Positions 5,567-59,454 of a DNA stretch of 64,000 nucleotides are shown here, piece by piece; the stretch's first letter is position 1, and the number at the start of each line of letters is the position of its first letter. The stretch is taken from assembly GCA_036785375.1 (NCBI GenBank), contig JAWMAR010000253.1, positions 2,170,001-2,234,000 on the forward strand, written 5' to 3'. This DNA comes from Leucoraja ocellata (lineage: Eukaryota). Made by a program: the position numbers and the translations under genes. The notes under the pieces were generated by a model. That model was not told the origin of the DNA and did no database searches. It worked only from the letters and a program-made list of their open reading frames with translations.

Positions 5567-5731
5567 TCATGTATCAGATGATAAACGGTGGGCAGAGAGC
5601 GCCTTTCCCTCATTCGGTCTTGCCCCCGCAGGGTCCAGATTGGGGTTGAATTTTATCTCATCGTATATCGTGGTAAGCTGTGCCTTTCGATTTTGCTCTC
5701 CTCCACTGGCATCCAGTTCACGTAAATGTCT
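5567..5731 (-). CDS. Terminal coding exon with ITSM (TTIYDEI)
   Basis: Acceptor ctttcctttcaagccacag|AGA, phase 0; RHLRELDASGGEQNRKAQLTTIYDEIKFNPNLDPAGARPNEGKALSAHRLSSDT*. Confidence 0.75.
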   Translation of the reverse strand, partial: RHLRELDASGGEQNRKAQLTTIYDEIKFNPNLDPAGARPNEGKALSAHRLSSDT

Positions 5732-8700
5732 CTGTGGCTTGAAAGGAAAGATTGTCAATGGACCGTGTGTTTAGATCTGGTGTTTATGTGACTCGGGCTT
5801 GTAATGCATGGTGCAGGGAATAGTGCAGAGGATAGTTTTAGAGTACAAGGCAGTTTACAGACATGAAGAGAGATCTTGGCACTGGGAGATATAGTTTTGT
5901 GCGGTTATAAATTCTGAAATGCCTGGTGAAAGAGATGATGTGTTCTGAAGTAACATAGAAGGAATTTTCTCATGTTTAGAAACATAGAAAATAGATGCAG
6001 GAGTAGGCCATTCGGCCCTTCGAGCCTGCCCCGCCATTCAATATGATCATGGCTTTAGTGGCTTTTGTACCACAAGACATGCAGAGCAAGGGCTGCAGAC
6101 TTCTGAGTGTTATGGTCATCTCTGTCTTGTGAACTCTGCAGGGAGTGTACTTTACGGTAATACAGAGTTCGCTATCATGGATGAAGCTTTGTGCTGGAGG
6201 ACTAGCTATGGGAAGGCTGCTGTCTCAGGGTCATCGACAGCAACTACCGTCTGGTAAAACTGGCTGCTCTATACAATGTTTTGGTTAAATTTCTGAGAAT
6301 CACTTGCGCACATTTTTATTCACACCAAGTGTCGCATGGAACCGCAGTGGACACAAAATGCTACCGCATCTACAGTCAGGGTCCAAACCACATTGAGTTG
6401 AACGATCTAAACCTCGCCTCGCTAAATGGACAAAGTATTTTGAACATTTTTTTAAATACTTTTATGTTCCATGACGACTTAGCCCCTGCTTGCCTGCAGT
6501 TTCTATTAGCCCTATAATCCCTCCAAAAACCGTCATCCTTGGCCTTGCGAACACCCACAATTTAATCTTTATTCTTGGCACATTCTATCCACTGTGAAAG
6601 CAACAACTTCTGGAATTCCTTCCCTCCCTTATTGAAACACTCGCTAAAATCTAACCATCTAAGCTTTTGTTATCTTTCAGTGACACAGTGACAGTTTTAG
6701 GTTATTAACACTATGATATTTCTTTGGACATTTCGCTACATTTTGGTTTTTAATTTTCCATACTCCATTCATCTTTTAACGGTCTTTCTGGTAACTCTTT
6801 CATTCAGCTTGGGTAATAAAGCCTCGTATTCAGAAGGTACACAAAAAAGCTGGAGAAACTCAGCGGGTGCAGCAGCATCTATGGAGCGAAGGAAATAGGC
6901 AACGTTTCGGGCCAAAACCCTTCTTCAGACTGATCGGGAGCGGGGACAAGAAAGGACAAAGGAGGAGGCGCCCGAAGGCTGGGGGATGGGAGGAGACAGC
7001 AGGGGGACTGAGGAAGGGGAGGAGACAGCAAGGACTAACAAAATTGGGAGAATTCGATGTTCCTGCCCCAGGATGCAGACTCCCCAAACGGAATATGAGG
7101 TGCTGTTCCTCCAATTTCCGGTGCTGCTCGCTGTGGCCATGGAGGAGACCCAGGACAGAGAGGTCGGAGACGGAGTGGGAGGGGGAGTTGAAGTGCTGAG
7201 CCACCGGGAGGTCAGCTTGGTTATTGCGGACCGAGCGGAGGTGTTCGGCGAAACGATCGCCCAACCTCCGCTTGGTCTCACCGATATAGATCTGCTGACA
7301 TCTAGAGCAGCGGACGCAATAGATGAGGTTGGAAGAGATGCAGGTAAACCTCTGTCGCACCTGGAACGATTGCTTGGGTCCTTGAACGGAGTCGAGGGGG
7401 GAGGTAAAGGGACAAGTGTTGCATCTCTTGCGGTTGCAAAGGAAAGTGCCCAGGGAGATGGTGGTACGAGAGGGAAGGGAAGAATTGACAAGGGAGTTAT
7501 GGAGGGAGCGGTCTTTGCAGAAGGCAGATATGGGGGGAGATGGGAAGATGTGGCGAGTGGTGGGGTCACGTTGGAGGTGGCGAAACTGACGGAGGATTAC
7601 TTTTTGTATGTGACGGCTGGTGGGGTGAAAGGTGAGGACTAGGGGGACTCGGCCCTTGTTGCGAGTGGGGGGATGGGGAGAGAGAGCAGTGTTGCGGGGT
7701 ATGGAAGAGACCCTGGTGCGAGCCTCATTTATGGTGGAGGAGGGGAACCCCCGTTCCCTGAATAATGAGGACATTTCAGATGTCCTGGTGTGGAACGCCT
7801 CATCCGTGGAGCAGATGCGGCGTAGACGGAGGAATTGGGAGTAGGGGATAGAGTCCTTACAGGAAGCAGGGTGGGAAGAAGTGTAGTCCAGATTCAGATC
7901 GTATTCAGATGTTAGTGCGGTAGTAGTAATGCCCAAATAATTAGATGAGATTGAAACGGGCGCGGTTAGATTCATGAGATCATGAACGCAGCCGAAACAC
8001 TTAACGTGCAACAGAGAGAGAGAGAGAACTATGAGAGAACAATTCCCAGGGAAGCAGAAGCAGAACTAGGAGCAAACTGTCAGAAAAGTTTAACTGCAAC
8101 AGAAGCTAAATGAGGAAGTGAGAAAACACATAAAAACAAATGTGGAAAGCCACAGAAATACAAATAGTATTACAACAAGGGTTAAACATTTGTGAAATGT
8201 GAGAACAATGGAGACAAAGGTAGAGCCACAAGGAATTGCGGATGTTGGAATCTTGAACAAAACACAAAAGTACTGAAGGAACTGGAGTGACAAAGGCATA
8301 TATGCAGCAATCTCATGGGATTGGATGGAATTTTTTCTGCTGATCATAATGACGAGCAGAATCAAACTGTATAAGAGTATCTCTGGAGAAGAGTCTCAAC
8401 CCGAAACGTCACCTATTCCTTTTCTCTACAGATGCTGCTTGACCCGCTGAGTTACTCCAGCATTTTGTATCCATCTTCAATATAAAGCCTCTCTTGCACC
8501 CCATCTAATCTGGCCTCCAGGGATTTGTGAAATTGCCCATAATGAGGCTCTTAGTGAATCAGGGATGAAACAACCCTTAATGACTTAATCACCCAAAAAC
8601 TCAACAACAAAAAAATGCCTTATTGGCTCAATCAATGGGTTCTGGGATTACATCATTTTTTTCAGTTATTTTTTCTGAATCTGGGCCTCACTGACAAAGC

Positions 8701-11700
8701 CCATCGTTAATTGCCCTTGAGAAGGTAGTGGAGAACTGCGTTCTTGTACAACAAATTGTCATTCCGAAACCTGCTTAAAAATTATCCACGTAAAGTGAGT
8801 CAGGAATCACAGATTGTTGGGACCAGAGAAGGGCAGGAGATTTCCATCTCAACAGGGTTTTTTTGGACCAGAATGTTTTTTTTATGACAATCATTACCAG
8901 AATTCGTTTTTTTTTAATATAAATTCCAGAATTTGTTCTTCCTTCTGGCACAATAATTAATTGAAAGAAAGGCAATAATCATTTTATGTCCCAACTATGT
9001 AAACTGGTTACCCTGGTTTGCCTGTGTAGCACAATGGTTATCAATTAGTATGAAGGCAATGGNNNNNNNNNNNNNNNNNNNNNNNNNNNNNNNNNNNNNN
9101 NNNNNNNNNNNNNNNNNNNNNNNNNNNNNNNNNNNNNNNNNNNNNNNNNNNNNNNNNNNNNNNNNNNNNNNNNNNNNNNNNNNNNNNNNNNNNNNNNNNN
9201 NNNNNNNNNNNNNNNNNNNNNNNNNNNNNNNNNNNNNNNNNNNNNNNNNNNNNNNNNNNNNNGTGGTGAATCTGTGGAACTCATTGCCACAGAGAGCTGT
9301 GGAGGCCAAGTCAGTGGATATTTTTAAGGCAGAGATAGATCATTTTTTGATTAGAATGGGTGTCATGGGTTGTGAGAAGGTAGGAAAATGGGATTAGGAG
9401 GCACAGATCAGCCACGATTGAATGGCGGAGTAGTCTCGATGGGCCGAATGGCCTAATTCTACTCCTAAAACGTGTGAAAAGTCTGACTGACGAGACAGCC
9501 ACAATGGGCATCCCTGCCAAGGTTCACCATATCCTCAGGCAATCATTCCCCCACCCATTGGTATTGTCACCTCGGTGCATCCATAGACCACCAGGGGAGA
9601 GGTATCCAGTTTCTGTCATTACAATCAAAGTTGCACATTGGATATTGGACAGACAGAGAATCATTTTCTCTCAAGAGTGTTTATTTGTCATATGAATCAG
9701 AAGCAACAAAATTCTTAAGCTGCAGCTTGACAAACACATTAGATGTAACAACACAAATAAATACCGGTATATAAAAAAATATTATTTACTTTAAGTAAAC
9801 TAATAAAAGCCTGTCTGAAACACATGTCTGAAGAAGGGTCTCGATTCAAAATGTCATCTATTCCTTTTCTCTATAGATGCTCTCTGACCACTTAATTACT
9901 CCAGCTTTTTGCGTCTAACTTTAGTAAAAAAATTAAGTATGTCGAGGGTCCATAGTAGTGCAAATTCCTGGTGTCGGGTGCTGAGGTCGGGTCATGCAAG
10001 GTGGTTCCTGTTCTTGTTTTCTTGGTTCTTGGTTTCTTGGTCCTCCAAAATATTCCAAATGGAATTTAAACTGGAGGTGGTGAAGGGAGGGATGAAAGGG
10101 TTGAAAGGGTGATGAGAAGAAGCTGTCCTTGAAACTGGAGGTAATGGTTCCCAGTCCTCTGCACCTCATATCATCAGAAATAAGCTAAGCATGGCGGAGT
10201 TCTGTTAGTCAAGGGAAAACAAAAGTGGGATTACTCTTTGCACCAGAGTCACCTCTGGGCAACATGCCAACCCAATCTAGTGAATTGACATTACGCTATT
10301 TGGTTTGAAACTCCAGAATCTTCGCTCCAAAGGATTTGTTCATCATCCAAAAATGTTGGAGTAACTCAGCGGGCAGGGAGAATCTCCGGTAAGAAGGAAT
10401 AGGTGATGTTTCAGGTCAAGACCCTTCTTGGGCTTGTACACGCTAGAATTTAGAAGATTGAAGGGGGGATCTTATAGAAACGTACAAAATTCTTAAGGGG
10501 TTGGACAGGCTAGATGCAGAAAGATTATTCCCGATGTTGGGGAAGTCCAGAACAAGGAGTCACAGTTTAAGGATAAGGGGGAAATCTTTTAGGACCGAGA
10601 TGAGAAAATCATTTTTTACACAGAGAGTGGTGAATCTCTGGAATTCTCTGCCACAGAAGGTAGTTGAGGCCAGTTCATTGACTATATTTGAGAGGGAGTT
10701 AGATGTGGCCCTTGTGGCTAAAGGGATCAGGGGGTATGGAGAGAAGGCAGGTACAGGATACTGAGTTAAATGATCAGCCATGATCATATTGAATGGCGGT
10801 GCAGGCTCGAAGGGCCGAATGGCCTACTCCTGCACCTATTTTCTATGTTTCTATGTTCACTGTGAAGAGGGACCTTGACCAAAACATCACCTATTCCTTT
10901 TCTCCAGAGATGCTGCCTGGCCCGCTGAGTTACTCAAGCATTTTGTGTCCATCTCCGTTGTCACCTAGCATCTGCAGTTCCTTCCTACACACCAGTGAAT
11001 TATCTGTGCTGGATGTAGAGGGAGAGTTACAGCAGCGTTGTAGCAGAGAAACTAGATCTAGCATCACACCTTTCAGCTTAGACAGCAAGAACAACAGAGA
11101 TGAGAGCAGATTTGATCAGTTGTAAAAGTTACATTCTGTTAGTGTCAACTATTGCAGAAAGAGCAGGAGATAAAACATGAAAGAGTTACTCTGAGCGTGG
11201 GAAAGAATGGTTTCACAGACTACGCGTTGAGTCTTTATACAATTTCACCCATGCTACCATGAGACAATAGGCAGAAAATGCTGGAGAAACTCAGCGGGAC
11301 AGGCAGCATCTCTGGACAAAAGGAACCAGTCTGAAGAAAGACCTCAACCCATTCCTTCTCTCCAGAGATGCTGCCTGTCCCGCTGAGTTACTTCAGCATT
11401 TTGTGCCTCTCTTTGGTTTAAACCAGCAGCTGCAGTTCCTTCCTACACAAGAGAGCATCTCTGGAGAAAAAGGATAGATGACATTTCGAATTAGGGTCCT
11501 ATCCCGAAACATCACCCATCTGTTCTCTCCAGAGATGCTGCCTGACCCACTGAGTTACCTCAGCATTTTATGTCTATCGGCAGCAGCTTACCTGGGCTTG
11601 CATTGGGTGGTACATAATTGAATAATCTTTTCTCATGTCCTATCCAACACGTGGGATGTAGATTTTCCCGCTGAGTTGCTCCAGCACTTTGTGACTATCT

Positions 11701-14700
11701 TTGGTATAAACCAGCATCTGCAGTTCCTTCCTACACACTAATGCCCCTGTCCCACTTAGGAAACCTGAACGGAGACCTCTGGAGACTTTGTGCCCCACCC
11801 AAGATTTCCGTGCGGTTCCCGGAGGTTTTTGTCAGTCTCCCTACTTGCTTCCACTACCTGCAACCACCTGAAACCTCCGGGAACCGCACGGAAACCTTGG
11901 GTGGGACGCAAAGTCTCCAGTGGTTTCCGTTCAGGTTTCCTAAGTGGGACAGGGGCATTAGGCTGCTGTTGATATGTGTGGAGCAGGGCATTTGGGATCA
12001 CTCAGTGGGAGAGAGGGTGCAGGGTCGGGAGATCGATGGGTAACTCAAGTAAGGTGGGGGGTAGAGAGCTTGTTCAGTGTTCAGGGTTGGTACCTGGAGA
12101 ATAAAGGGGGTGAGTTGCAAGGTGAAGAAGAGGCTGAATATCAGCACCTGACAGGGGCCCCACCTGCGTCTGAACCTATACAGGAAGGTATAGTTGAAGT
12201 CAATCAGAAGAAAGACGGACAGGTACTGTGAAAGCCTCTTGAAATGCAGCTGAAGATAGACTGGTGAAGCTGAATTCTGAAGGAGATCTCAAAGACTGCA
12301 AACCATTCTAAAGTGAGTCAACATGCCAGGAATGGTGTACGTTGGACGCCATAGGTATGCACATACCTGAGGTTCTTTGTGCATCCCACTGAAGATCGCC
12401 TAAGGAACTGGAAGAAGAAGCACAAACTTTGCAAAGCACCATTTTGAGGTCACAGAATAACATGAAAAACACAGCACACAGGATGGAACGTAGGCGTCTC
12501 CCTTCAAAGGCTTTCTTTGAAGATTTGTTCTGCAGAGAAGGTTGGTCGGTCTCTCCGTTTGTGTTTACCAGCAGACAAGGAGCTAAAGCCAAAATACGGT
12601 GACTAACATGAGCCGCCTTGTTGTGAAGGGCCATAACCTGGGATTAGACTGCATGGTTTAAGAAGAAGAATAGTCGAGTACCTGCCTTCATCGTGGTTTG
12701 GTTTTTTCTTCCAGTACATGCAGCCAATGCTAGCTAAGATGATAGCTCCCACCACAATTCCCGCAGTAATCAAGCCAATATGGAGTGCTTCCTGTTGCTT
12801 GACACCTGAAAAAGGATCAACATTCAACTGTGATTGCATTAGTGCGTTAATGCAGAAAAATATAAAATGTACTTTGCTCAAAAATGAGAAATGAAGCTGA
12901 ATGCACTGGTGTGCCGTCTTTTCATCTTTCATTTTATTATTTTTAATGTGTTTTCAAAGTATGTGTTAATGTTCTCTGGTTTGTTTTTTATGTGCGGGTG
13001 AGGGAGGGGGTCGGGGGGAACTTTTTTTCAGTCTCTTACCTTGCCGGAGATGCGGTTGTTTTCCGGATCGTATCTCCAGTCGCTCTGCGGCCCAACATCA
13101 TGGAGCTGGCGGCCTTGCTCGAGTGACTTTGACTTTGAGCCCCAACGTGGGGCCGTGGACTTACCATCGGAGCCTGTGATCCCTTGTGTGGAGGAGCATC
13201 GAGGAGCTCGCAGTCTCGGGTAGAGCCTGATGTCGGGAAGCTCCAAAGTCGCAGGAGGTTCGACCAGCCCCGACCCGGGGTCCGATCGCCCGGCACGGGG
13301 AAGCTGAGATCCCCCCGATGCGCGAGCTTGATCGTCCCTACGCGGAGGGCCGGCTGCCAGCTACGGGAGCCAAGATCGTCCCGACAACGGAAGGCTCGAG
13401 GCCCCCGATCGCAGGAGAACAAAGAATAGAAGAGATTGAACTTTTTTACACCTTCCATCACAGTGAGGAATGTGGAGGAGTCACTGTGGTGGATGTTTAT
13501 GTTCAGATGGATTTTGTATGTTTTGTTGCTTTTTATTTATATGACTGTACGGCAAATCAAATTCCTCGTATGTTGCAAAACATACTTGGCTAATAAAGTA
13601 TGATTATGATGATTACTATGAAGAAACTGTTCTTAAGGAGACCTGCAAGATCAAAATTGCAGCCTGAAGGGTCCCCACACTAAAAGTCACCTATCTATGT
13701 TCTACAGGGATGCTGCCTGACCCACTGGGTTTAGTTTAGTTTAGACCTACAGCGGGGAAACAGGCCCTTCGACCCAATGAGTCCGCACTGACCAGCGACC
13801 CCCCGCACACTAACGCTATGCCACACACAAGTTACAATTATACCAAGCCAAGTAACCTACAAACAAACCAATGCATCTTTGGAATGTGGGAGGAAACCAG
13901 AGATCCTGGAGAAAACGCACTCAGGTCACAGGGAGAACATACAAACTGTGTACAGATAAGCACCCGTAGTCAGGATCGAACCTGGGTCTCTGGCGCTGTG
14001 AGGCAGCAACTCTGCTGCTAGGCCACCATGCCACCCACTGTGCCGTTCCATCACCGTATCTTTTGTTAACCAGAATCTGCAGCTCTTTGCTTCTACATTT
14101 TGTCTGTCAAATTATAACTGGTTTAAACAGTGTATTGAACAATTCCATATCAAAGATTCGGCAACATTTTTACTAATTCACACTCCGGCTTACTAAATCC
14201 AAAAGTTTGAATTTCATTAGACTTTAGACATACAGCGTGGAAACAGGCCCTTCGGCCCAGCAAATCAACGGCAACCCATACACTAGCACGATCCTACAAA
14301 CTAAGGGCAATTTACAATTGCCATAGAGGGAGTACAGAGAAGGTTCACCAGACGGATTCCTGGGATGTCAGGACTTTCTTATGAAGAAAGACTGGATAGA
14401 CTCGGCTTGTACTAGCTAGAATTTAGAAGATTGAGGAGGGATCTTATAGAAACTTACAAAATTCTTAAGGGGTTGGTTGGACAGGCTAGATGCAGGAAGA
14501 TTGTTCCCGATGTTGGGGAAGTCCAGGACAAGGGATCACAGTTTAAGGATAAGGGGGAAATCTTTTAGGACCGAGATGAGAAAAATCATTTTTCACACAG
14601 AGAGTGGTGAATCTCTGGAATTCTCTGCCACAGAGGGCAGTTGAGGCCAGTTCATTGGCTATATTTAAGAGGGAGTTAGATGTGGGCCTTGTGGCTAAAG

Positions 14701-17301
14701 GGATCAGGGGGTATGGAGAGAAGGCAGGTACAGGATACTGAGTTGGATGATCAGCCATGATCATATTGAATGGCGGTGCAGGCTCGAAGGGCCGAATGGC
14801 CTCCTCCTGCACCTATTTTCTATGTTACTAGCATGATCCTACACACGAGGGACAATTTACAATTAACTTAAGCCATTTAACCTATAAACTTGCACGTCTT
14901 GGGAGTGTGGGAGGAAACCAGATCACCCAATGAAAACCCAGGCGGTCACAGTGAGAACGTGCAAACTCCATACAGACAGCACTATAGTCAGGATTGAATC
15001 CGGCTCTCTGGCGCTGTAAGGCAGCAACTCTACCGCTGCGCCACTGTGCCGCCATCTTTGTCCTCTTAGTTAATTTCACATTAGTTTTTTTGGTCGAGTT
15101 CAAGGCAATTGAAATTCTGCATTTGAAGATGCACGCATTGGAAAAAGTCAGTTGGCGAATTACAGAGATACTATTTCAACCCCAGCACTGAACCCAGGAA
15201 ATGATAAAGTCACTAATTTGAAAGCATGAAGTCAGTAAAAAGCAGTTATTGATAAGGGAAACTATCCTGTAAGCTAGTGTGAAAGATTCTCATTTCCAGA
15301 TCTCTGAGTCTGATTGTGATATAGTCAATCCAGTGTCACCAACAATTCACCCTTCTCAGAAGCAAGACCAGGGATCGCTGGTCGATACGGACACCGTGGG
15401 CCGAAGGGCCTTTTCCGTGCTGTATCTCTAAACTAAATTAAATTAAAAATTTATTAGTTCCAAATGATAATAATTTTGTACAAAAAAATGTTCTCTCCCA
15501 TCACTTGTGCCTTATGCCCAGTATCTATCCTCTAGCCCTGGAAACATCTGCCAATGGAAAAATCATCTTAAAGGCTGCTGACATTTTGCCCAGTGGCATA
15601 AAATATTCAGTGTTCTTCCCAACAACACTTTGAACTTCATGTGCATTAGAGAAATTTAGTTTAGAGATACAGTGCCCTTCGGCGCACCGAGTCTGAGCCA
15701 ACCAATAATCTCCGTACACTAGCACTATCCTACACTCCAGGGAAAATTTCCAATTTTTACCAAAGTCAAATTAACATACGAACAGGCTTTGCAGTATGAG
15801 AGGAAACTAGAGTACCCCGGGAAAAGATACACGGTCACGGAGAAAATGTACAAACTCCGTACAGACAATACTCGTAGTCAGGACCGAACCTGAGCCTCTA
15901 GCACTGTTAGGCAACAACTCTTCCGCTGTGGCACCATGCCACCCTGGTTGCACCAGGTTGTGAGAATTAGTTTATTTAAACATTCAACAATGGTACAATC
16001 AAGAGAGAACGGTGGAAAAAAGATTTCTGATAGTGTGCTTAGTGTGAAAAGATAAAGCCACAAACCTTCATGGGCAGGACAGAGCTGTGTTAGATCCACG
16101 CTCCGCGTCTCCTCACTAACAGGGTTCCCCACGGTGCAGTTGTACACACTGTTGTTGTTGGGTAGAGGTATGGAGAGTGCCAGCCTTCTCCCTTCGTCAG
16201 TCAGTATGTGCAACCCATCTGCCGTGACCTTGCCATCTCCTGACCACCAAGTGTAGACTGGCTCGGTGCCGTGCTCCAGTGAACACACCAAGCTAACGTT
16301 ACACACCCCTTCGGTGAAGGCTTCACTGATATCTATTACTGGTAATGACACTCGTTCTGTTTTAAAGAAAAACACAAATACAAGCCATGGAATAATAACA
16401 ATCAGAAGGTGCTAGCCATGAGTTTCCCACAAGAACATTAAGAGTAGAAGATTCTTTAGTTTAGTTTAGAGATGCAGTGTAGAAACAAGCCCTTCGACCC
16501 ACAGACTCCGCGCCCATCCCCGCACACGAGCACTATCCTACACACACTACGGACAATTCTCAAACTCTGTACAGACAAGTACCTGTAGTTTTAGTGCAAA
16601 CTCCTTCTCGTGATTTTACAAAATGAATTGTCCAGGTTACACTTTGCCACCAAAACTAGATCACAAGTAAACTCGTTATTAGCAGAGAAAGTTTAATGAC
16701 AGGTGGCCCTATCATCTTACAGAGAAGTCAGATGGCTTGGAGAACCCATCCTAATGCTCTGCCATTAATATTCAAACAGCAAATACTGGGGATGGGTTCC
16801 TAAATAAGCAAGGACTCCAACCCATGTAATGTTTCAGTACTCACCCTGCCCGTATAACCCACACACTTGGGCTCACATCGAAAGCCTTATCTTGATTTCC
16901 CCTTATATCTTTAAGTTCTTAATGATTGTTAGATTGGAAAATACACTGTTTTTTAAACTGAAATAGATTACCATAAATCTTCAGTTCTGTCACTTGTACG
17001 TGGACAGCCAGAGTCGTCCTTAAGTTCATTTCATATAGACCTTGATCATGTTCTGTTAGGTTCTGTATTTCCAGACTACAGTCCTTCAGGTTTAACCTGA
17101 TTCGCTGTTTGTTACAATGTATTGGATTGTTTTGAGTTTTCGTACATAATTGAACCTTTCCTGTTGTTGGTGAACTTTGGTAATCCCAAGTGAGGATTGA
17201 AATGTTTTCTCCTGAGATATATCCTGGTAACGTGACTGACTGTCCCAGTATCCCATTCACCAAGCGACGAGTGCCTGGTTTCCCAGCAGTCTGTCCCAGA
17301 C
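5567..17301 (-). CDS. CD2/SLAM-family immunoglobulin-superfamily receptor, spliced model of 7 exons (leader exon not located)
   Basis: IgV + IgC2 + TM + Tyr-motif tail; all six introns are GT-AG and junction phases 1,1,2,1,1,0 join into one open frame ending TGA at 5569-5567. Confidence 0.85.
6835..7890 (-). mobile_element. Penelope-like element 3' part (RT thumb plus GIY-YIG endonuclease) with terminal hammerhead motif
   Basis: SIPYSQFLRLRRICS; CNRKRCNTC; NLIYCVRCSRCQQIYIGETKRRLGDRFAEH; CTGAAGA-stem-GAAACGTT at 6928-6901. Confidence 0.92.
8898..8944 (-). CDS. Cytoplasmic micro-exon 3 (EGRTNSGIYIKKKRIL)
   Basis: Acceptor ctttctttcaattaattattgtgccag|AA, donor CTG|gtaatg, 47 bp, phase 1-0 bridging to the terminal exon; spans an A9 run. 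Confidence 0.6.
9063..9262. other. Assembly gap (200 N) inside the receptor gene; further gaps at 61579-61761 and 61842-61981
   Basis: Runs of N. Confidence 1.
10430..10856 (+). mobile_element. CR1 family B 3' fragment (representative; similar copies at about 14318-14827, 17465-17835, 18840-19338, 21815-22505, 30275-30700, 31667-31903, 32138-32403, 32855-33470, 36898-37270, 37580-38045, 38697-39255, 44875-45312, 47901-48287, 53228-53605, 53784-54308, 57995-58220, 59588-60060)
   Basis: Near-identical LDAGRLFPMLGKSRTRGHSLRIRG...GYGEKAGTGY coding end, 3' stem ggccgaatggcc and ttctatgt tail. Confidence 0.9.
11592..11639 (-). CDS. Cytoplasmic micro-exon 2 (GHEKRLFNYVPPNASP)
   Basis: Donor CAG|gtaagc, weaker acceptor gtgttggatag|GA, 48 bp, phase 1-1; unique island between repeats. 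Confidence 0.68.
11742..11957. mobile_element. PIF/Harbinger-like MITE family 1 (copies: 21988-22211; 33518-34663 split; 51460-51680; partial 48665-48727 and 54308-54436)
   Basis: Long terminal inverted repeats TGCCCCTGTCCCACTTAGGAAACCTGAACGG...; TWA flanks. Confidence 0.8.
12367..12407 (-). CDS. Cytoplasmic micro-exon 1 (SSLGDLQWDAQRTS)
   Basis: Strong acceptor cttcttcttccag|T, strong donor CAG|gtatgt, 41 bp, phase 2-1 as required by the TM exon. Confidence 0.82.
12682..12805 (-). CDS. Exon: transmembrane helix and basic stop-transfer
   Basis: Acceptor gatcctttttcag|GT, donor GCAG|gtactc, 124 bp, phase 1-2; IGLITAGIVVGAIILASIGCMYW-KKK. Confidence 0.9.
14880..15057 (-). mobile_element. tRNA-derived HE1-like SINE (copies or fragments at about 13730-14045, 15655-15945, 26412-26650, 28945-29152, 49003-49085, 53610-53785, 58395-58645, 63815-63960)
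   Basis: Pol III A box gtggcgcagcgg, B box gg(a/g)ttc(a/g)atcc; full copies end in a CR1-like gggcctgtttccgtgctgta plus (taaac)n tail. Confidence 0.8.
16066..16356 (-). CDS. Exon: IgC2 domain with four cysteines (CD2/SLAM type)
   Basis: Acceptor tttctttaaaacag|AA, donor GAAG|gtttgt, 291 bp, phase 1-1; ERVSLPVI...CNVSLVC...YTW...YNCTVGNPVS...LTQLC. Confidence 0.93.
16972..17301 (-). CDS. Exon: N-terminal IgV domain lacking the canonical B/F-strand disulfide
   Basis: Acceptor cttgtccttgtgtttcag|GT, donor TATG|gtaatc, 330 bp, phase 1-1; VNGILGQSVTLP...LTW...SLEIQNLTEHDQGLYEM...ELKIY. Confidence 0.93.
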
Positions 17302-56051: not shown

Positions 56052-57516
56052 AACCATATAACCATATAACAATTACAGCACGGAAACAGGCCATCTCGGC
56101 CCTACAAGTCCATGCCGAACAAATTTTGTTCCCCTTAGTCCCACCTGCCTGCACTCGTACCATAACCCTCCATTCCCTTCTCATCCATATGCCTATCCAA
56201 TTTATTTTTAAATGATACCAATGAACCTGCCTCCACCACTTCCACTGGGAGCTCATTCCACACCGCCACCACTCTCTGCATAAAGAAGTTCCCCCTCATA
56301 TTACCCCTAAACTTCTGTCCCTTAATTCTGAAGTCATGTCCTCTTGTTTGAATCTTCCCTATTCTCAAAGGGAAAAGTTTGTCCACATCAACTCTGTCTA
56401 TCCCTCTCATCATTTTAAAGACCTCTATCAGGTCCCCCCTTAACCTTCTGCGCTCCAGAGAATAAAGACCTAACTTATTCAACCTATCTCTGTAACTTAG
56501 TTGTTGAAACCCAGGCAACATTCTAGTAAATCTCCTCTGTACTCTCTCTATTTTGTTGACATCCTTCCTATAATTTGGCGACCAAAATTGTACCCCATAC
56601 TCCAGATTTGGTCTCACCAATGCCTTGTACAATTTTAACATTACATCCCAGCTTCTATACTCAATGCTCTGATTTATAAAGGCTAGCATACCAAAAGCTT
56701 TCTTTACCACCCTATCTATATGAGATTCCACCTTCAAGGAACTATGCACGGTTATACCCAGATCCCTCTGTTCAACTGTATTCTTCAATTCCCTACCATT
56801 TACCATGTACGTCCTATTTTGATTTGTCCTGCCAAGGTGTAGCACCTCACATTTATCAGCATTAAACTCCATCTGCCATCTTTCTGCCCATTTTTCCAAA
56901 TGGCCTAAATCACTCTGTAGCCTTTGGAAATCCTCTTCATTATCCACAACACCCCCTATCTTGGTATCATCTGCATACTTACTAATCCAATTTACCACAC
57001 CTTCATCCAGATCATTGATGTACATGACAAACAACAAAGGACCCAACACAGATCCCTGAGGCACCCCACTAGTCACCTGCCTCCAACCCGATAAACAGCC
57101 ATCCACCATTACCCTCTGGCTTCTCCCATTCAGCCACTGTTGAATCCATCTTGCTATTCCTGCATTTATACCCAACAGTTGAACCTTCTTAACCAACCTT
57201 CCATGAGGAACCTTGTCAAAGGCCTTACTAAAGTCCATATAGACAACATCCACTGCTTTACCCTCGTCAATTTCCCTAGTAACCTCTTCAAAAAATTCGA
57301 GAAGATTAGTCAAACATGACCTTCCAGGCACAAATCCATGTTGACTGTTCCTAATCAGACCCTGTTTATCTAGATGCTTATATATATTGTCTCTAAGTAT
57401 CTTTTCCATTAATTTGCCCACCACTGAAGTCAAACTAACAGGTCTATAATTGCTAGGTTTACTCTTAGAACCCTTTTTAAACAATGGAACAACATGCGCA
57501 GTACGCCAATCCTCGG
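56052..57516 (-). mobile_element. CR1 LINE family A, 5'-truncated, open RT and C-terminus
   Basis: ORF from PEDWRTAHVV to AGRWD*; same tail as the 535-2330 copy. Confidence 0.95.
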
Positions 57517-59454
57517 GGACTGGTGGAGAGAGAGAGTTACATAGAACGTATGAACAAAGACATCTGAATTGCTGAAGGAAAGGAGATACAGCCGGAATTA
57601 CCCAACCTGGTAAAACAAACACCAAACACCATCTGTTCAGTGTGTGTTTACATTGGATTTGTAGAACTCTTTGTACGTTCATGGAGGAGTAACTGACACA
57701 AAACCGACGATAGCCTGTGAGTCTGTTGCAAGGGAAAACATCTGCCCACAAACGGTCAGGATGTTGAGGTGTGGTTTATATGACTGATTATATGACTGAT
57801 TAACAAACGTTCACCAAAGATGCAGTTGGATGGTAGTAACGACCTGCAGTGGGTAAAAACAGGGGCATGAAAGACTGAAAACGCTGGAATTTAAAAAAAG
57901 ATTTCCCTCAGTTGCCAACTATTTTAATTCTCTTCACAATTCCCCAGGTTAGAATCATTCAGTGTGGAAACATGCCCTTCGGCCCAACTCGGCCACAGTT
58001 TAAGAATAAGGGGTCGGCCATTTAGAACGGAGACGAGGAAACACTTCTTCACACGGAGTTGTGAATCTGTCGAATTCTCTGCCTCAGAGGGCTGTGGAGG
58101 CCAGTTCTCTGGATACTTTCAAGAGAGAGCTAGATAGGGCTCTTAAAGATAGCGGAGTCAGGGGACATGGGGAGAAGGCAGGAACGGGGTACTGATTGGG
58201 GATGATCAGCCATGATCACATTCTTGGTTCTTGGTTTCTTGGTCCACCAAAATATTCCAAATGGAATTTAAACTGGAGGTGGTGAAGGGAGGGCTTAAGC
58301 CAGAAAGGGTTATTGGGAAGAAAGAGCTACTTTACATTGAATTGCGGTGTTGGCTCAAATGGCCTACACCTGCACTTATTGTCTATTGTCTATTTAGACT
58401 ATAGAGAGATACAGCATGGAAACAGGCCCTTCGGCACACCGGGTCCGCTCTGACTAGTGATCACCCTGTACACCAGCACTATCCCACACACAAGGGACAA
58501 TGTTACAACTGACCGAATCCAATTAACCGACAAACCTGCTCACCATTGGAGTGTGCGAGGACACCAGAGCACCCGGAGCAAACCCACACGGTGTTGGAGA
58601 GAACGTGCAAACTCCGTACAGACAGCACCCAAGGTCAGGATGGTTTAGAGTCAATTTAATCTCTAGATTATCTACTGTTATTTTTCTTGCTATGAGTTAC
58701 ATCCACCCTGAGACATCATACAAACTGTGAACATTAGAAACTGCAGATGGTTTACAAAGAAAATACACAAAGTGCTGGAGTAACTAGCGGGCCAGGCAGC
58801 ATCTCTGGAGAACATGGATAGGCGATATTTAGGGTCGGGACCCTTCTTCAGACGAATTATGGAGTGGGGTGTGGGGGAACGCAAGCTAGATGGGAGGAAT
58901 CATAGAGTAGGAACAGGCCCTTCGGCCCAACTCGCCCACACCAGCCTCATATCCCATCTAAACTAGTTAAATCTGCATGCGTTTGGCCCATATCCCTCTA
59001 AACCCGTCCTATCCATGTACCTGTCTGTTTCTTAAACATTGCGATAGTACCAGCCTCAACTACCTCCTCCAACAGCGCATTCCATACACCCACCACCCCT
59101 TGTGTAAAAAAGGTACCCTTCAGGTTCCTATTAAATGTTTCTCCCTCACCTTAAAAGGAGGGGCAGGATGAAACAGGGCTGTAAATAGGTGAATGGGGGG
59201 AGGTACGTTTTGATGGGCAGCTGCTTGGACAACGGCCAGACGTGACCAAACAGAAGGTGTGAGACAAAAGGATTGAAGATTGTGAATTATGAAGCTAGAT
59301 GAGGGAATGTAGGTAGAGGGGAAAGGGAGAATAGTTGTGAGTTCAGTGGGGCAGTGGGGGGGTAGGGGAGAAAGGGGAGGGTGGTATGGCAGAGAAAGGG
59401 GATGAGGGTTTTACAGAGGTTACCTAAGATTGGAGAATTCAGTGCTCATACAGA

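Follow-up and report, generated by a model that had tools for sequence, protein, structure and literature searches.

A CD2/SLAM-type receptor gene of a skate and the two reading frames of its terminal exon

The receptor gene and its neighbourhood

The window, which is the whole stretch of 64,000 nucleotides analysed here from the skate Leucoraja ocellata, carries a receptor gene on its minus strand, and the V, four-Cys C2, transmembrane (TM) and terminal exons of this gene are all intact. The features are:

16972..17301, minus strand: IgV exon, 330 nt, phase 1-1; no canonical B-F cysteines; Cys52, Cys62 and Cys74
16066..16356, minus strand: IgC2 exon, 291 nt, phase 1-1; four Cys; CxxxNPVS
12682..12805, minus strand: exon for the stalk, uncharged TM and basic juxtamembrane region, with tandem donors
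after 12686 (GC, phase 1) and after 12682 (GT, phase 2), minus strand: the two donors of the TM exon, implied by relatives' isoforms
12367..12407, minus strand: optional cytoplasmic exon, 41 nt, phase 2 to 1, in one Leucoraja RefSeq isoform (P0030)
9063..9262, no strand: run of 200 N, likely an assembly gap
5567..5737, minus strand: terminal coding exon with two reading frames and acceptors at 5737 and 5731
5713..5724, minus strand: frame B motif YVNW (in DIYVNW), of the pYxN Grb2/ITT-like type; frame B stop at 5655-5653
5654..5671, minus strand: frame A ITSM-consensus motif TIYDEI; frame A stop at 5569-5567

The V domain matches the Pfam V-set (E 9e-9) and has no Cys at the B or F positions, Cys52, Cys62 and Cys74 being present instead. 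An earlier note on this DNA had described the domain as disulfide-less, which is correct for the canonical B-F pair, but these cysteines make another disulfide likely. As Cys52 occurs in every one of 16 orthologues and Cys62 in 12 of them, this is likely a non-canonical C'-C'' bond. The C2 exon (16356-16066) does have the four cysteines and the CxxxNPVS motif attributed to it: Cys18, 24, 73 and 92, which align with the four of SLAMF6 (2IF7 alignment), and CTVGNPVS. A membrane-proximal C2 domain with four conserved Cys is a feature of CD2/SLAM proteins. A charged TM residue for pairing with FcR-gamma or DAP12 was seen in neither TM type of the family. The window yielded no signal-peptide exon; the closest of fitting strand and phase lies approximately 3.3 kb beyond the right edge of the window, some 50 kb away from V. 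At the 3' side, contigs of relatives break at the terminal-exon boundary and continue to 5079 as 3' UTR, and no AATAAA or ATTAAA is present in approximately 1 kb downstream of the stop codon.

The gene order is RBM4B-like (+), receptor (-), TRIM-PRY/SPRY (-) and then GTF2H4, which is identical in order and strands to the MHC of sawfish chr34. Matches to MHC class I and PBX fall on contigs other than C253, a search for MHC class II beta found nothing, and U1 snRNA gave 0 Rfam hits in 140 kb. The receptor family is likely MHC-linked. The canonical SLAM cluster occupies the nicastrin neighbourhood (human 1q23). Here, nicastrin and a second, divergent SLAM-like cluster are found on C201, separate from the receptor family, which sits on C253, C622 and small contigs; VANGL and calsequestrin are on C85 and C2025, with no link to C253. 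Because the locus lies away from the nicastrin-linked cluster and is flanked by MHC-region genes, the receptor is not filed as an orthologue of any of SLAMF1-9.

Family assignment

The best PDB match of the V domain is SLAMF6 (E 1.6e-8), and a family profile also has SLAMF6 as its top PDB match (E 5e-17), with CEA second-best. When C2 was searched alone, titin and CEA came first and no SLAM was present in 54 matches. An AF2 model of the V domain (pLDDT 89.8) has NTB-A as its top Foldseek match, and for the AF2 model of a relative that is 94% identical in V and 98% in C2, the top 7 Foldseek rows are NTB-A, CD48, CD2 and CD58. With this second model, VIA Z is 16.8, 16.6 and 15.9 for CD2/SLAM structures versus 14.8 and 14.1 for CEACAM1, a margin of approximately 2 Z units.

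Further evidence came from an ML tree, which left out named CD2, CD58, 2B4 and SLAMF6-8. The window falls within a 20-row chondrichthyan clade (98/97) inside the SLAM-like proteins, and these are separate from the HEPACAM and CEACAM-like rows (98/88; 98/92 in a further run). AU tests of the alternative grouping gave p 0.071 for HEPACAM, 0.077 for the CEACAM-like rows and 0.36 for both. Thus, on the choice between CD2/SLAM and CEACAM/HEPACAM that the earlier note had posed, fold and tree favour the CD2/SLAM type, and the AU tests give no formal rejection of the latter. Two specific identities were rejected. The true HEPACAM is a separate gene on contig C69, 99% identical to Amblyraja HEPACAM, and its C2, 37% identical to that of the window, has two Cys versus four here. 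CEACAM A/B domains also have two Cys versus the four-Cys C2, and CEACAM folds rank lower.

A separate IgSF lineage nearer to CEACAM/HEPACAM, SLAM-like by convergence and inhibitory in the manner of PD-1 (ITIM+ITSM to SHP-2, no SAP), would be in keeping with the non-significant AU tests, the CEA profile match and a locus different from the nicastrin-linked SLAM cluster; ITSMs occur outside the SLAM family too. Such a lineage is quite improbable, as the two Cys of HEPACAM and CEACAM5-like rows, the fold ranking above CEACAM1 and the ML split all speak against it. Sequence, fold and tree together support a CD2/SLAM-type receptor of a cartilaginous fish, and with a skate as its source the gene does come from an early-diverging jawed-vertebrate lineage, as had been proposed. 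The proposed SLAMF-type switch receptor is supported in family type, in the TxYxEI motif of frame A, conserved in 20 chondrichthyan species, and in the presence of a SAP-like exon 1 in the genome (E 5.5e-14), but the ITSM form of this copy cannot be assembled from the visible sequence. An EAT-2-like candidate is of doubtful identity.

Splicing of the tail and the two frames of the terminal exon

Seven GT-AG exons had been joined to reach the ITSM in the earlier note. In-frame paths of this kind can be built (two were tried and both reach TIYDEI) but need micro-exons of 12-28 nt; these, one of which lies within a repeat, are absent from the relatives' isoform tails examined, and the model was rejected. 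Among the extra tail exons, only the 41-nt exon (12407-12367) is backed by relatives, in one Leucoraja isoform, and it is also found in 5 type-A (long-tail) copies. Instead, relatives reach the ITSM from the GC donor (12686) by way of a 74-nt exon that contributes an initial tyrosine motif (..LYAVI..; Tyr1), the real long form in relatives thereby having two tyrosine motifs, Tyr1 and the ITSM. The motif itself was correctly read, as TIYDEI is present at 5671-5654 in the terminal exon. A Logan contig-derived protein (P0022) joins signal peptide, V, C2, TM, Tyr1 and terminal exon. The skate Tyr1 motif, PLYAVI, departs from the strict ITIM consensus at -2. Frame B is reached by the GT donor 4 nt downstream together with exon skipping, and leads to DIYVNW. 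The GCAG-GT donor pair is present in 5 of 6 type-A copies, and its GT donor is a weak match to the consensus.

Contigs from relatives' runs bear on the proposed junctions in part. In 3 of 4 runs they are mostly repeats, usable only for the V-C2 junction and the terminal-exon boundary. The V-C2 junction is exactly bridged in 2 of the 3 runs read, the RNA status of the runs being guessed. These contigs do not identify the exon before the terminal exon, and no tail junction of the window copy was recovered from reads.

The 74-nt Tyr1 exon is absent from the readable sequence of the window (tblastn of relatives' tails), and a genome search places it at only four other sites, in four paralogues. 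It is expected approximately 235 nt beyond the upstream edge of the N run (9063..9262), and all four paralogues that have the exon are colinear with the window as far as 9263, then no further. Outside the window, each of the 9 N runs seen has a length of exactly 200. Here, the N run is likely an assembly gap that holds the Tyr1 exon. The visible sequence of the window copy permits only the DIYVNW form, the ITSM form needing the exon that is likely in the gap.

Alternatively, the window copy could be a scaffolding chimera, or a truncated copy truly without the Tyr1 exon that never makes the ITSM tail, and the terminal exon at 5567 may then derive from another copy or haplotype. The post-gap sequence (9062-6245) matches none of the four complete paralogues, only a truncated copy without the Tyr1 and terminal exons. 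In addition, the N run taken as a letter-for-letter mask is too short for the exon (approximately 309 nt needed), the assembly has many duplicated haplotigs, and the two flanks of the run may stem from different copies. However, the post-gap segment resembles the pre-insertion state of the same intron, other copies carrying a repeat inserted at 6240-6245, and every coding exon of the window copy is intact and in phase. We regard the chimera or truncation as rather unlikely and prefer a gap that holds the exon.

RefSeq gene models give a predicted frame-B isoform for 14 of the 17 species surveyed, among them chimaera. Frame-B Y, N and W are invariant in 15 of 15 gene pairs (YxNW), the sole changes within YVNW being V to I and V to A at the x position. 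In the YVNW block, frame-A first positions have 5 changes and third positions 1, versus 2 at first/second and 17 at third positions of the TTIYDEI block (Fisher p 0.0008); the 4-codon block was picked after data inspection, and in a window-shuffle test p is 0.068 at a length of 4 codons and 0.002 at 7. Conservation does not extend to the third frame, which has a stop in skates. These substitution patterns point to selection on both frames of the terminal exon, and splice-enhancer constraint near the acceptor may be a partial cause of the YVNW conservation.

We think it unlikely that the ITIM+ITSM tail is the only functional one of an otherwise ordinary SLAM-like receptor, with the frame-shifted isoforms arising as by-products of splicing and YVNW kept passively via frame A or a splice enhancer. 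For 5 of the 17 species a third-frame isoform is annotated as well, which would mean that gene models record whatever gets spliced, and the weak GT donor and non-significant 4-codon shuffle agree with this. Yet frame A tolerates R/C/H, E/Q and L/I at the same codons where frame-B Y, N and W stay fixed. Nor is the DNA merely frozen: first positions of the block vary as fast as usual (5 changes in 4 codons versus 1.0 per codon elsewhere), and third positions of the two codons closest to the acceptor have changed 4 and 2 times. A predicted ITSM form and a predicted Grb2-type form from one exon are a new observation for this gene; in the literature searched, with most subscription journals outside the search, no study of its tail or of the skate expansion was found.

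The skate cluster, its proposed function and known systems

The assembly has 29 V/C2 copies, a number inflated by haplotigs, of which 6 are long-tail (type A) and approximately 18 tail-less (type B, with V-C2-TM and a short tail without a tyrosine motif). At least 3 type-B copies keep a decayed terminal exon in which the ITSM Tyr has turned to a stop, and type B arose inside skates from the same gene. For pN/pS, 7 of 26 listed copies without an ungapped V and 4 without an ungapped C2 were excluded and one exact duplicate of each was removed, leaving 18 V and 21 C2. The ratio is 0.64 overall for V, which does not show positive selection, and 0.51 for C2. The front sheet has a pN of 0.107 versus 0.034 elsewhere (3-fold), with pS also higher (0.156 versus 0.068). 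An 'outward face' ratio of 1.77 was discounted, its sites having been chosen after the variation was known. The earlier note had missed this multigene cluster, the second reading frame and the MHC-region context.

Given the exons observed, the two donors, the two conserved frames and the cluster, we consider it fairly probable that this is a long-tail, likely MHC-linked copy of a chondrichthyan V-C2 receptor of the CD2/SLAM type, with a predicted splice switch between a tandem-tyrosine tail and a DIYVNW tail from the two-frame terminal exon. Here, the V domain would bind itself or a paralogue through the front sheet, and a Src kinase would phosphorylate the tail. The GC donor and 74-nt exon would give YAVI...TIYDEI, a likely docking tail for SAP or SHP-1/2 that would activate when SAP is present and inhibit when it is absent. 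Use of the GT donor, 4 nt further downstream, together with skipping of the exon would shift the frame to DIYVNW, which is likely Grb2-binding and would supply an activating, DNAM-1-like input. The approximately 18 tail-less copies may serve as ligands or decoys in the manner of SLAMF8/9 or CD58. More tentatively, and at somewhat under even probability, all cartilaginous fishes keep an MHC-linked SLAM receptor whose last exon is selected in two frames, a GC/GT donor choice with exon skipping toggling the receptor between ITIM+ITSM and DNAM-1-like Grb2 tails, with a paired-receptor-like cluster of signalling and tail-less copies in skates that varies on the ligand-binding face.

If so, one exon with two SH2 docking motifs in overlapping frames would be an unusual switch between SAP/SHP and Grb2. 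The two-frame tail would have been kept since the chimaera lineage parted from that of sharks and rays, over 400 million years ago. The likely MHC-region site, apart from the canonical SLAM cluster, would bear on the descent of CD2/SLAM from a primordial MHC, and the skate cluster of signalling and tail-less copies would resemble pathogen-shaped paired-receptor families.

That a skate has a SLAM-like gene is no surprise, and such genes are already annotated. Chondrichthyan RefSeq proteins named 'signaling lymphocytic activation molecule-like' or 'SLAM family member 9-like' form an orthologous clade with the same exon set and tail motifs (for example Leucoraja XP_055522185, Amblyraja XP_032903545, Pristis XP_051899442 and Callorhinchus XP_007908711), and the skate relatives are 84-94% identical to the window V. 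These entries, from skates, rays, sharks and a chimaera, are automatic annotation only, and no functional study of them or of a two-frame tail was found in the literature searched. Verissimo et al. 2023 (PMC10751288) give an elasmobranch MHC-linked 'slamf' a single mention in a figure legend and list it in supplement tables, apparently without analysing it. The gene was therefore not hidden, as the earlier note had it, near-identical relatives being already SLAM-like in RefSeq and 'slamf' being marked in that source. It shares the order RBM4B-like, SLAM-like, A33-like TRIM on sawfish chr34, and orthologues of the receptor are consistent with sawfish chr34 and white-shark chr19 by synteny, not by accession. 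In those species 'slamf' is one or two genes, in contrast to the large skate cluster.

Mammalian SLAMF6 (NTB-A), CD84 and SLAMF1 have the same V-C2-TM-ITSM layout and are the top fold matches; the CD84 tail contains RIYDEI, akin to the skate TIYDEI, which fits the ITSM consensus (PMC10213746). The skate receptor differs in its approximately 23-28% identity, other locus and lack of one-to-one orthology, in an extra C'-C'' Cys pair and in one ITSM preceded by an ITIM-like motif. DNAM-1 (CD226) has an ITT-like motif, pYVNY, in which Y and N are needed for Grb2 binding and +3 is free (PMC4647266). Its pY-V-N core is common to skate frame B, whose conservation matches these needs, but DNAM-1 belongs to a different receptor family, and the skate motif, of predicted binding, overlaps an ITSM exon in another frame. 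Type-B skate copies, with no tyrosine motif in the tail, resemble CD58, which is grouped with receptors without an ITSM. They likewise resemble SLAMF8, SLAMF9 and CD48, which have no ITSM (PMC10213746).

Structure and placement of the receptor gene

The receptor gene is located on the minus strand and is surrounded by repeats. Most introns are filled by LINE fragments and SINEs, and a 546-aa reverse-transcriptase ORF (56135-57775, minus) is presumably CR1/L2-like, with many shorter pieces elsewhere.

Exons of the receptor gene, each with a normal acceptor and matching phase
17301-16972, minus, V exon
16356-16066, minus, C2 exon
from 12805, minus, TM exon
5737-5567, minus, terminal exon

A signal-peptide exon was not found within the window; the closest one in phase lies about 50 kb upstream of V on the same contig, at C253:2237407-2237291, and the sawfish gene at the matching position spans 47 kb.

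The V domain matches the Pfam V-set (E 9e-9) and its top PDB match is SLAMF6 (E 1.6e-8; runner-up 0.002). The C2 domain alone is not diagnostic, with titin and CEA as top matches and no SLAM proteins among its 54 matches. It does carry the four cysteines and the CxxxNPVS motif described in the earlier note, here as CTVGNPVS. That note also called the V domain disulfide-less, which is correct for the canonical cysteines only: three other cysteines are present, and as Cys52 is invariant in orthologues (16/16) and Cys62 is found in 12/16, a C'-C'' disulfide is likely. Residue 27 of V is Tyr in the window copy versus Cys in 17 of the 19 copies listed, and this skate cysteine may pair with Cys74.

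A search with V gave 12 matches, every one from a skate or ray and 11 bearing a SLAM-like name, with identities of 84-94% for the skate matches. A profile search gave 45 matches, reaching sharks and chimaera and then mammalian CD84; this similarity marks the organism as a skate, and the family is already annotated in databases. The top fold matches of the AF2 model of P0036, a relative's protein (pLDDT 86.5), are NTB-A, CD48, CD2 and CD58, and NTB-A is also the top fold match of the window V model. In a tree of 59 rows, built without CD2 and CD58 and with many unnamed rows (10 were given names by look-up), the window gene lies within a 20-row chondrichthyan clade inside the SLAM-like proteins and has no one-to-one mammalian orthologue. 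HEPACAM is a separate gene in this genome. The tree favors CD2/SLAM over CEACAM/HEPACAM, but AU tests on 34 of the 59 rows (25 being left out as long-branched or redundant) rejected none of the joins of the window clade to HEPACAM (p 0.071), to CEACAM-like rows (0.077) or to both (0.36). The gene is genuine and of CD2/SLAM type, a kind already known and annotated; it is orthologous to none of SLAMF1-9, and the exon model of the earlier note is corrected.

Another contig has a different, divergent SLAM-like cluster (C201:44571-501109, L134-L145) with 27-37% identity to this skate family. It lies about 0.4 Mb from nicastrin and probably represents the canonical SLAM locus. A SAP-like first exon (C109:348771-348893, L215; top PDB match SAP) is present twice in the assembly, as is an EAT-2-like exon candidate of doubtful identity (C175:1301663-1301785, L221). 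Tfh-like cells of the nurse shark are marked by a gene called Slamf6, which may or may not be this gene (PMC10529500), and expression of sh2d1a-like is described for a T subset of the bamboo shark (PMC11372145).

The exon path into the tail

In relatives, the long isoform runs from the TM exon through a 74-nt exon with the first tyrosine motif (Tyr1 exon) to the terminal exon; P0022, a protein with this isoform, derives from a 1,850-base Logan contig. The seven-exon GT-AG paths proposed earlier reach TIYDEI (the ITSM, 5671-5654; frame A) in frame, but were rejected as they require micro-exons used in none of the relatives' isoforms read. Relatives' contigs bridge the V-C2 junction in 2 of the 3 runs read and mark the 5' edge of the terminal exon in 2 runs. 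At the end of the TM exon, a GC donor is followed 4 nt further by a GT donor (5/6 long-tail copies). When the GT donor is joined straight to the terminal exon, the tail has 38 residues, carries DIYVNW (frame B) and lacks the ITSM; for this form of the window copy the visible exons suffice.

A tblastn search detects no Tyr1 exon in the window; four other places in the genome have one. These four Tyr1-bearing paralogues are colinear with the window as far as 9263, where a 200-N run interrupts it; the Tyr1 exon of each starts 234-235 nt past the equivalent point. Since each of the nine N runs observed beyond the window measures exactly 200, this one is likely a scaffold gap, although it could conceivably be a mask. 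Beyond it, 9062-6245 matches a truncated copy only, and 6240 onward matches all four paralogues. The Tyr1 exon may lie within this gap, or the sequences flanking the gap may derive from different copies. Compared with the truncated paralogue, the window has an insertion of ~1.06 kb (6834-7898), overlapped by a 401-aa ORF (6860-8065, minus) which is presumably a Penelope-type GIY-YIG element.

Genomic neighborhood and skate copies

Pfam annotation of the longest 142 of 514 candidate flank ORFs placed RRM (an RBM4B-like ORF) and zf-CCHC on one flank, and TRIM-PRY/SPRY and GTF2H4 on the other. According to the supplement of PMC10751288, sawfish MHC chr34 carries RBM4B-like(+), SLAM-like(-), A33-like(-), PBX2 and NOTCH4, with a second SLAM-like gene near TAPBP, and white-shark chr19 has 'SLAMF' between RNF5 and WDR46; the main text names slamf once, in a figure legend. 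The orthologue records reach slightly beyond the last features listed there, with 19,913,265 bases against 19,829,058 in Pristis and 115,848,844 against 115,613,256 in Carcharodon. No search of the assembly linked the window's locus directly to class I, class II or PBX. GTF2H4 exons are found on either strand, in mirrored order and together with TRIM-PRY/SPRY pieces (C253:2517705-2577796, L188-L194), an arrangement that is an inverted duplicate or haplotig.

The stretches read hold 29 V and 29 C2 loci (22 V and 24 C2 whole and stop-free), 6 long-tail and 18 short-tail TM exons, 4 Tyr1 exons and 5 intact terminal exons. These counts are inflated, because a part of C253 recurs at 99.8% on a separate contig, another gap has an inverted 99% duplicate beside it and many SH2 genes are present twice. 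Variation between copies clusters on the C, C', C'', F and G strands, with pN/pS < 1. In the three short-tail copies examined, the terminal exon persists in decayed form, carrying an inserted repeat and a stop at the ITSM Tyr codon; frame-B YVNW is still readable in two.

Decayed terminal exons 3' of short-tail copies
C253:2327887-2328409
C253:2373878-2374399
C253:3362621-3362704
C3022:8987-9510 (another contig)

Separately, C253:3350000-3460000 holds V-C2 units without a TM exon nearby, and RefSeq models read V-C2-V-C2 (Amblyraja) and V-V-C2 (Mobula) (P0035, P0003); these are possibly Ly9-like four-domain forms or model fusions.

The terminal exon in two frames

The new elements are a terminal exon probably constrained in both frames and the expansion in skates; title-level searches found no study of either. 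Of the 17 species whose clusters were read (four ray genera being outside this set), 14 have an annotated DIYVNW isoform; the exceptions are Carcharodon, S. canicula and C. plagiosum, where none is listed. Annotation also gives 5/17 an isoform in the third frame, yet this one is variable in sequence, and a stop closes the third frame in skates; annotation alone is therefore no proof of function.

Codons inferred from 15 isoform pairs are in every case consistent with one DNA sequence. Changes in these and two third-frame pairs were mapped onto a species tree with an assumed topology. Changes at frame-A positions 1/2/3 number 5/1/1 in the YVNW block versus 1/1/17 in the TTIYDEI block (Fisher p 0.0008). 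Third-position changes elsewhere average 2.08, giving P(<=1 in 4 codons) = 0.002; when the block may be placed freely, a stretch of 4 codons reaches p 0.068 and one of 7 codons p 0.002. Frame A tolerates R/C/H, E/Q and L/I at the YVNW codons, and frame-B changes are confined to the x of YxN.

TxYxEI, a form of the TxYxxI/V motif of the earlier note, is conserved in 20 species and fits the ITSM consensus given in PMC10213746. For frame B, the comparison is with DNAM-1, whose pYVNY binds Grb2 via Y and N with the +3 residue free, as described in PMC4647266; this Y and N core is common to DNAM-1 and the frame-B YxN.
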